41,323 bases of DNA, taken from Escherichia coli (lineage in GTDB: Bacteria > Pseudomonadota > Gammaproteobacteria > Enterobacterales > Enterobacteriaceae). Positions 38,075 through 38,242 of this stretch are shown one piece after another. The notes beneath the pieces are model-generated. The model was not told the DNA's origin, ran no database searches, and worked only from the letters and a program-made list of their open reading frames with translations. How positions within the stretch are numbered: position 1 is the stretch's first letter; the number at the start of each line of letters is the position of its first letter. Made by a program: the position numbers and the translations under genes. The stretch is from NCBI RefSeq assembly GCF_003334785.1, contig NZ_QOWV01000025.1. One strand, 5' to 3'.

Positions 38075-38176
38075 AGAGACTCCCGTATACTTTCTTCAAA
38101 AATAAATGAAAATAGTTCTTATTTCAATTACGGAAAGACTCTTTTTTAAGCAAAGAATAGAAATATGAATAAAAAT

Positions 38177-38201
38177 AATGGGCTACCAAAAGTAGCCCAT
38201 T
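38177..38201 (-). terminator. Rho-independent terminator (second of a tandem pair) downstream of chiA
   Basis: Perfect 10-bp stem AATGGGCTAC / GTAGCCCATT with loop CAAAA; minus-strand transcript is followed by a U-rich tract. Confidence 0.65.
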
Positions 38202-38213
38202 GACAAAAAATGC

Positions 38214-38235
38214 GGCGATACTGGAAGGTATCGCC
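38214..38235 (-). terminator. Rho-independent terminator (first of a tandem pair) immediately after the chiA stop
   Basis: 8-bp stem GGCGATAC / GTATCGCC with loop TGGAAG; minus strand followed by AUUUUUUG. Confidence 0.7.
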
Positions 38236-38242
38236 AACACAT

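Follow-up and report, generated by a model that had tools for sequence, protein, structure and literature searches.

Tandem predicted terminators and a Fur-controlled promoter in the chiA-bfd spacer of Escherichia coli

The 168-bp intergenic spacer between chiA and bfd of Escherichia coli (38075-38242) very probably forms a transcription boundary, in which tandem terminators are followed, on the same minus strand, by the Fur-controlled promoter of bfd. All positions refer to the window, i.e. the entire 41,323-nt stretch of DNA that was analysed, which is of the K-12 type and is converted to MG1655 coordinates (NC_000913.3) by adding 3428917. The open reading frames that flank the spacer are chiA (38243-40936), which ends with the stop codon TAA at 38245-38243 and is also covered by RefSeq records with identical DNA, and bfd (37880-38074), whose start codon ATG at 38072-38074 agrees with the RefSeq annotation; bfr follows at 37332-37808, and all three genes lie on the minus strand. 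These gene names, which the earlier note had assigned from the sequence, are correct according to the RefSeq annotation of identical DNA, and the term bfd-bfr promoter is the operon name taken from the database. A 451-bp query spanning the region retrieved matches from 3161 complete E. coli genomes, including MG1655 and W3110, with the matched genes annotated as bfd and chiA, and the spacer itself is 100% identical to K-12 records. Thus, the locus and its intergenic sequence are the same as those for which the K-12 bfd-bfr promoter and its Fur cluster were described (PMC2189734, PMC3946193, PMC4676285, PMC10164565), and the present analysis adds the coordinates in the window, a matrix score obtained independently and a footprint across genera. 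The Fur-repressed bfd promoter is already known and has been documented since at least 2007 (PMC2189734). Mildly new are the Fur box that stays fixed at about -40 across genera whatever gene lies upstream, the predicted double terminator, and two deeply diverged bfd-bfr alleles tied to whether gsp and chiA are present. A small open reading frame within the spacer was also considered and rejected; the sole ATG-initiated frame noticed on reading comprises five codons.

Two hairpins follow the stop codon of chiA on its own strand and are predicted to be its intrinsic terminators. The first, T1 (38213-38236, minus strand), begins 6 nt past the TAA and consists of eight Watson-Crick pairs with a 6-nt loop, the 5' arm GGCGATAC (38235-38228) and the 3' arm GTATCGCC (38221-38214) enclosing the sequence CUUCCA; the scan tool adds a T-G pair as the ninth, which extends the hairpin from 38235-38214 to 38236-38213. 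A U6 tract (CATTTTTTGT, 38205-38210) comes right after the stem, with the dinucleotide CA between the stem and its TTTTTT (38210-38205). After a gap of about 3 nt, and 41 nt past the stop codon, T2 (38177-38201, minus strand) begins, in which AATGGGCTACT, the loop TTT and GGTAGCCCATT form 11 pairs, including one G-U pair, around a 3-nt loop. Its stem is adjoined by a U-rich tract of the form U5AUU (AUUUUUAUU, 38168-38176), the DNA 3' of the stem reading ATTTTTATT at 38176-38168. The folding energies are -14.9 kcal/mol for T1 (z -5.6) and -16.2 kcal/mol for T2 (z -5.5), with none of 200 shuffles as stable in either case, and a 111-nt stretch whose fold is dominated by the two hairpins reaches -35.9 kcal/mol (z -7.2). 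Each hairpin combines a stable G+C-containing stem with an immediate U-run and is positioned 3' of a stop codon on the same strand. The earlier note had reported two strong minus-strand hairpins with U-runs after chiA, which are present where it had placed them, and its reading of them as terminators is supported by this full intrinsic terminator anatomy on the chiA strand, straight after the stop. A loose terminator pattern is not enriched over shuffles in 20 kb (22 found versus 22.0 expected), and T1 and T2 occupy ranks 1 and 2 among these 22 candidates. Bidirectional terminators were considered as well and rejected. Because the plus strand after T2, the hairpin checked in this respect, reads GACAAAAAATG and lacks a U-run, and because no convergent gene is present, the terminators are taken to act in one direction.

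The terminators can be compared among E. coli strains and with more distant genomes. In the E. coli variants examined, changes in T1 are limited to the loop (A/G) and T2 is invariant, both stems and U tracts being constant while neighbouring spacer bases vary. Only one other lineage shares the chiA-bfd spacer, the metagenome-assembled genome UBA5654 (L065), in which ChiA and Bfd are 90% and 91% identical to the proteins of the window. Here, T2 is retained, and two of its pairs have changed in a compensatory manner, one from T-A to C-G and the other from C-G to T-A; compensatory pairing is thus observed for T2 as two double changes in the single comparison with UBA5654. The position of T1 is taken in UBA5654 by an unrelated hairpin, which is rich in G+C and followed by a poor U tract (GTTTCC), and covariation is uninformative for T1 because the relative has a different hairpin there. 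In Enterobacter, Kosakonia and Trabulsiella, a chiA homologue also precedes bfd, at a larger distance and with one strong terminator before the bfd promoter; this single terminator was found in five of five loci (L025, L030, L041, L046 and L049). In genomes with tufA upstream, i.e. O157-type strains and other genera, the tufA terminator stands before the bfd promoter. A terminator is therefore located directly upstream of the bfd promoter in every arrangement examined, and its doubling is particular to the K-12-type lineage. As a separate observation, a distance of 749-961 nt separates bfd from the end of the match to the C-terminal 300 residues of ChiA (76-78% identity) in Enterobacter, Kosakonia and Trabulsiella. 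The ChiA homologue of Enterobacter sichuanensis (L025, 237-1751) carries a C-terminal extension of about 215 residues that the E. coli protein does not have, and this extended open reading frame ends 164 nt before bfd.

One or both hairpins might have a role other than termination, either as 3' stem-loops that protect the chiA mRNA or, for T2, as a relic terminator, the tandem design being without function. This is unlikely, even though several observations can be cited for it: neither chiA nor bfd nor the coordinates expected for them are listed in the supplements of the eLife Term-seq paper, and no mapped 3' ends of chiA were found; the other lineages with chiA next to bfd have one hairpin; the poor U tract at the T1-equivalent position of UBA5654 means that conservation does not extend to a pair of good terminators; and the covariation argument relies on one outgroup comparison. 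However, both hairpins have a U-run right 3' of a stable G+C-containing stem, which stabilising stem-loops do not need, the pairing of T2 survives two double substitutions, and the stems and U tracts are invariant among E. coli variants in which nearby spacer bases are variable. In addition, the chiA-linked type II secretion system is H-NS-repressed in K-12 (PMC11390585), and if chiA is poorly expressed like gsp, this would account for the absence of recorded 3' ends. Termination by T1 and T2 thus remains the preferred interpretation.

The AT-rich stretch downstream of the hairpins, which the earlier note had taken to carry the bfd-bfr promoter, does so according to both the hexamer scan and published RpoD binding (PMC3946193). 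The scan identifies a sigma-70 promoter, TTGAAA-17-TATTTT, at 38127-38099 on the minus strand, with the -35 hexamer at 38122-38127 and the -10 hexamer at 38099-38104. Genomic SELEX with the RpoD holoenzyme lists 'TTGAAA-17-TATTTT, bfd-bfr' for the chiA/bfd spacer; since this is the same pair, both RNA polymerase binding and the assignment of the hexamers are already published (Shimada et al., 2014; PMC3946193). Transcription is predicted to start at 38091-38093, 6-8 nt downstream of the -10 hexamer. The Shine-Dalgarno sequence GGGAG (38080-38084) is located 5 nt before the ATG, and most loci share the sequence ACGGGAG. The alignment reveals an unconserved AT-rich spacer between T2 and the promoter (38128-38167), and the G+C content of 38075-38176 is 24.5%. 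The bfd promoter tops the list of promoter-like sites between 20 and 40 kb, in which all listed sites tie at nine of 12 matches, and the frequency of the generic promoter pattern is not above chance in the window. As the generic patterns for terminators and promoters are at chance level in the window, weight lies only with the strength and placement of T1, T2 and the promoter. Among K-12-type E. coli, the variable sites are the T1 loop, four bases 5' of the -35 hexamer, the third base of the -10 hexamer (T/C) and the leader, the variation falling into the flanks while the Fur box, the -35 hexamer and both stems are unchanged. The -10 hexamer reads TACTTT in some E. coli and TACACT in O157-type strains, and the -35 hexamer is conserved across taxa as TTGAAA or TTGTAA.

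Fur sites were searched with a symmetric 19-bp matrix that was seeded with the classical consensus and trained on the intergenic regions of 16 established Fur-repressed promoters of MG1655 (fepA/fes, fepD/entS, fepB/entC, fhuA, fiu, fhuE, tonB, cirA, exbB, feoA, ryhB, fecA, fecI, fhuF/yjjZ, sufA and yncE), with bfd excluded. The 19-mer at 38108-38126 (GAAAATAGTTCTTATTTCA) scores 12.3 bits, the highest value among 41,305 positions of the window, and it is overlapped by a second match of 9.1 bits at 38102-38120. In leave-one-out scoring, the 16 known promoters range from 8.0 to 18.8 bits; because 12.3 bits falls within this range, among the lowest-scoring third of the known sites, the bfd site is regarded as genuine but moderate. 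About 2% of dinucleotide shuffles of this AT-rich DNA reach the same score. The two matches are centred at 38117 and 38111, i.e. with an offset of 6 bp, and scores along the region are periodic at 3 bp. An offset of 6 bp between sites is typical of Fur arrays. The 7-1-7 core TGAAAATAGTTCTTA occupies 38107-38121 and is centred at 38114, 40 nt upstream of the bfd ATG; it agrees with the 7-1-7 consensus at 10 of 14 positions and with the ChIP-exo motif TGAnAATnATTcTCA at 10 of 12 fixed positions (11 of 13 when the lower-case c is included). Together, the two 19-mers (38102-38126) reach five bases into the -35 hexamer and three into the -10 hexamer and span all of the spacer between, the arrangement usually seen where a repressor acts by occlusion. 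A hand count against the classical consensus GATAATGATAATCATTATC yields 10 of 19 matches at 38108-38126 and 11 of 19 at 38102-38120. The latter is the best match of 11 of 19 that the earlier note had correctly given, and the Fur-like string it had quoted, AATGAAAATAGTTCTTATTTC, is found at 38105-38125, in the best matrix match of the window. A consensus search with the 15-mer TGANAATNATTNTCA, allowing at most two mismatches, returned six matches against 1.8 expected, a number reached by two of 100 shuffles; this search is too weak to decide and the trained matrix was used in its place. A second Fur site was sought with the matrix within bfd and the bfd-bfr spacer (37809-38074), where the best score is 3.4 bits.

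Independent support for the site comes from published predictions and from in vivo data. An information theory analysis predicted a cluster of three Fur sites at bfd that covers 31 bp at -40, the strongest of which reaches 20.2 bits (Chen et al., 2007; PMC2189734). In the underlying 9-1-9 model, sites lie 3 bp on either side of the centre of a classical Fur box (PMC2189734), and the centres 38111 and 38117 therefore correspond to 9-1-9 centres at 38108, 38114 and 38120, spanning 38099-38129. The bfd Fur box was also matched by the PRODORIC matrix in another study (PMC4145685). In W3110, a ChIP-exo peak at 4173360-4173372 was assigned to bfd (Gao et al., 2023; PMC10164565); mapped to the window, it lies at 38127-38139, adjoining the -35 hexamer, with its centre about 20 bp upstream of that of the Fur box. 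A Fur peak at bfd was detected by ChIP-exo in E. coli W, too, and the log2 fold change of bfd in fur deletion derivatives of eight strains ranges from +2.3 to +7.3 (PMC10164565). At a distance of 149 bp from the one at bfd, the E. coli W dataset has another Fur peak, which was assigned to bfr (PMC10164565); the matrix search for a second site, made to account for this peak, covered the corresponding K-12-type DNA. For MG1655, it was reported that Fur binds at bfd and represses a lacZ fusion to the bfd promoter (Beauchene et al., 2015; PMC4676285). On published data mapped to the window, the site is thus occupied by Fur in vivo. The MG1655 ChIP-exo list contains no bfd peak and gives the expression of bfd in MG1655 as 'N/A' (PMC10164565, Dataset 2), which looks like a gap in the dataset rather than biology, as the near-identical W3110 has the peak and binding in MG1655 was observed independently. 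The Fur site, which had been proposed tentatively on the sequence, is therefore supported as the right one: it is the first-ranked matrix match of the window, it belongs to the published -40 cluster (PMC2189734), it adjoins a ChIP-exo peak and its position is conserved; likewise, the iron- and Fur-dependent regulation of bfd expected along with it is documented as Fur repression by the promoter-lacZ fusion (PMC4676285) and by RNA-seq.

To follow the site across Enterobacterales, one genome per species was scanned, giving 46 loci that encode Bfd. In all 46, the best matrix match in the 200 bp upstream of bfd has its end 28-42 nt (mostly 36 nt) short of the ATG and scores 9.7-20.7 bits. This position is constant whether tufA, a chiA homologue or another gene is located upstream, and the Fur site is accordingly conserved in orthologous promoters. 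An alignment of 47 upstream regions displays near-random conservation (10-50%) upstream of 38128, followed by a sharp block of 80-99% identity at 38128-38103, which extends from the -35 hexamer to the first bases of the -10 hexamer. Conservation dips after the start of the -10 hexamer and rises again at the ribosome-binding site. It is very unlikely that the Fur-like match arose by chance in AT-rich promoter DNA, with bfd responding to iron indirectly, for instance through another regulator or RyhB. Such a reading could draw on the agreement with just 10-11 of 19 classical consensus positions in a region of 24.5% G+C, on the weak excess of the 15-mer consensus over chance and on the MG1655 ChIP-exo list without a bfd peak. 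Against it, the match ranks at the top of the 41-kb window and falls in the range of known sites (shuffle p about 0.02), and its position is kept in 46 of 46 loci, some of whose promoters have just the block from -35 to -10 and the ribosome-binding site in common with that of the window. Fur is also found at bfd in the ChIP-exo data for W3110 and E. coli W and in MG1655, and the Fur dependence of the promoter-lacZ fusion points to the promoter as the level of control. Hardly credible is the further idea that the hairpin region is a REP/BIME-like repeat or a small RNA gene that does not belong to chiA: intergenic paired hairpins can be repeat elements, and the RefSeq record of MG1655 has no annotated feature in the spacer, but a scan of 37000-39000 against Rfam returned zero family matches at E up to 1, the 168-bp spacer is present as a single exact copy in each of the 3161 genomes, the minus strand has no promoter-like site upstream of either hairpin save inside chiA, and the gap of about 3 nt between the U tract of T1 and the stem of T2 leaves no room for a separate transcript.

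Taken as a boundary followed by a Fur-controlled promoter, the spacer would operate as follows. RNA polymerase leaving chiA would be stopped by T1 or else by T2, about 35 nt later, and since two terminators follow each other, little read-through into bfd would be expected; the pair would presumably insulate bfd in this way. Some of this polymerase could come from the very strong tufA upstream, after passing its own terminator (41204-41177). Roughly 50 nt beyond T2, the sigma-70 promoter would start the bfd transcript, we infer, near 38092, with a leader of about 18 nt that contains the GGGAG site. When iron is sufficient, Fe2+-Fur dimers would occupy the overlapping sites at 38102-38126, and because these extend from the -35 hexamer through the spacer into the beginning of the -10 hexamer, RNA polymerase would be excluded, presumably by occlusion. 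When iron is scarce, Fur would depart, bfd would be transcribed and Bfd could release iron from bacterioferritin. Fur control of bfd is physiologically important, as it triggers iron release from bacterioferritin in starvation. Beyond correct annotation, the region itself has little significance, being a textbook gene boundary with terminators followed by a repressor-occluded promoter, and such elements can be located from sequence alone, as had been done in the earlier note.

Several known systems resemble parts of this arrangement. As in the classical Fur-repressed promoters of fhuA, fepA-fes, ryhB and fhuF, overlapping sites with a 6-bp offset lie over the core promoter, and bfd is repressed when iron is sufficient. 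In contrast to these promoters, the bfd site is weaker (12.3 bits versus up to about 21 bits for fhuF and ryhB with the same matrix) and its product frees stored iron, while iron import is the function of the classical targets. A likeness is also found in the tufA-terminator/bfd arrangement of O157-type E. coli, Citrobacter, Kluyvera and further genera, in which a strong terminator is followed by roughly 100 nt of unconserved spacer and by the -35/Fur box/-10 unit, at the same distance from the ATG. There, tufA is located upstream with one terminator, whereas in the window chiA is interposed and two terminators are present; the Fur boxes of the two also differ in sequence (TGTAATCATAACTATTCTC against TGAAATAAGAACTATTTTC). 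The terminators recall rrnB T1-T2, in which two hairpin and U-run units in series end a transcription unit and a multiplicative drop in read-through is expected. The chiA pair likewise consists of tandem hairpin-plus-U-run units; unlike rrnB, which is a highly expressed operon, it is predicted, and its gene is located in a reportedly H-NS-repressed locus.

The rpsJ-tufA interval of E. coli is dimorphic, as is evident when 37332-41176 of the window is compared with 4521-5910 of the locus L003. Among 5426 complete genomes, 3161 have the gsp-bfr-bfd-chiA arrangement, their bfr-bfd DNA matching the window at 95% identity or more. In another 2233, including O157:H7, the bfr-bfd DNA is about 79% identical to the window, and what comes straight after tufA is a short gene for a prepilin peptidase, along with bfr and bfd, neither chiA nor gspC-M being present; 31 of the 5426 have no bfr-bfd match whatever. 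At the protein level, the two allele types are 88% identical for Bfd and 90% for Bfr, and tufA with its terminator (12 pairs) is common to both. The Fur box of O157-type strains recurs without change in Citrobacter and several further genera. A third configuration was found in strain MEW (L002, 3288-4000), where IS1 stands in place of the DNA between a point within gspD and codon 11 of bfd, the deletion ending at a point that corresponds to 38041 of the window; the terminators, promoter and Fur box are kept, and bfr and most of bfd are gone.

These comparisons suggest that the K-12-type block of gsp, bfr, bfd and chiA may be a linked foreign allele, with UBA5654 as its closest relative. It is conceivable, albeit somewhat doubtful, that the K-12-type bfd-bfr is not ancestral and arrived together with gsp and chiA as a block with its own variant Fur box, promoter and double terminator, the latter being maintained specifically for pure Fur control of bfd downstream of a horizontally acquired chiA, in a reportedly H-NS-repressed locus, and of the very strong tufA. 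In a pangenome association study on mastitis, bfd and bfr were classified as accessory with the same strain frequencies as gspA-O and chiA (0.812 vs 0.375) (PMC11390585). The two-allele structure probably explains this call, and presence or absence of bfd and bfr is not required, because pangenome software would split alleles of 79% identity into separate clusters. Finally, in the tufA-chiA spacer (40937-41228), the region upstream of chiA is very AT-rich and contains five promoter-like matches against 1.4 expected, which fits the reported H-NS repression of the linked type II secretion locus (PMC11390585).
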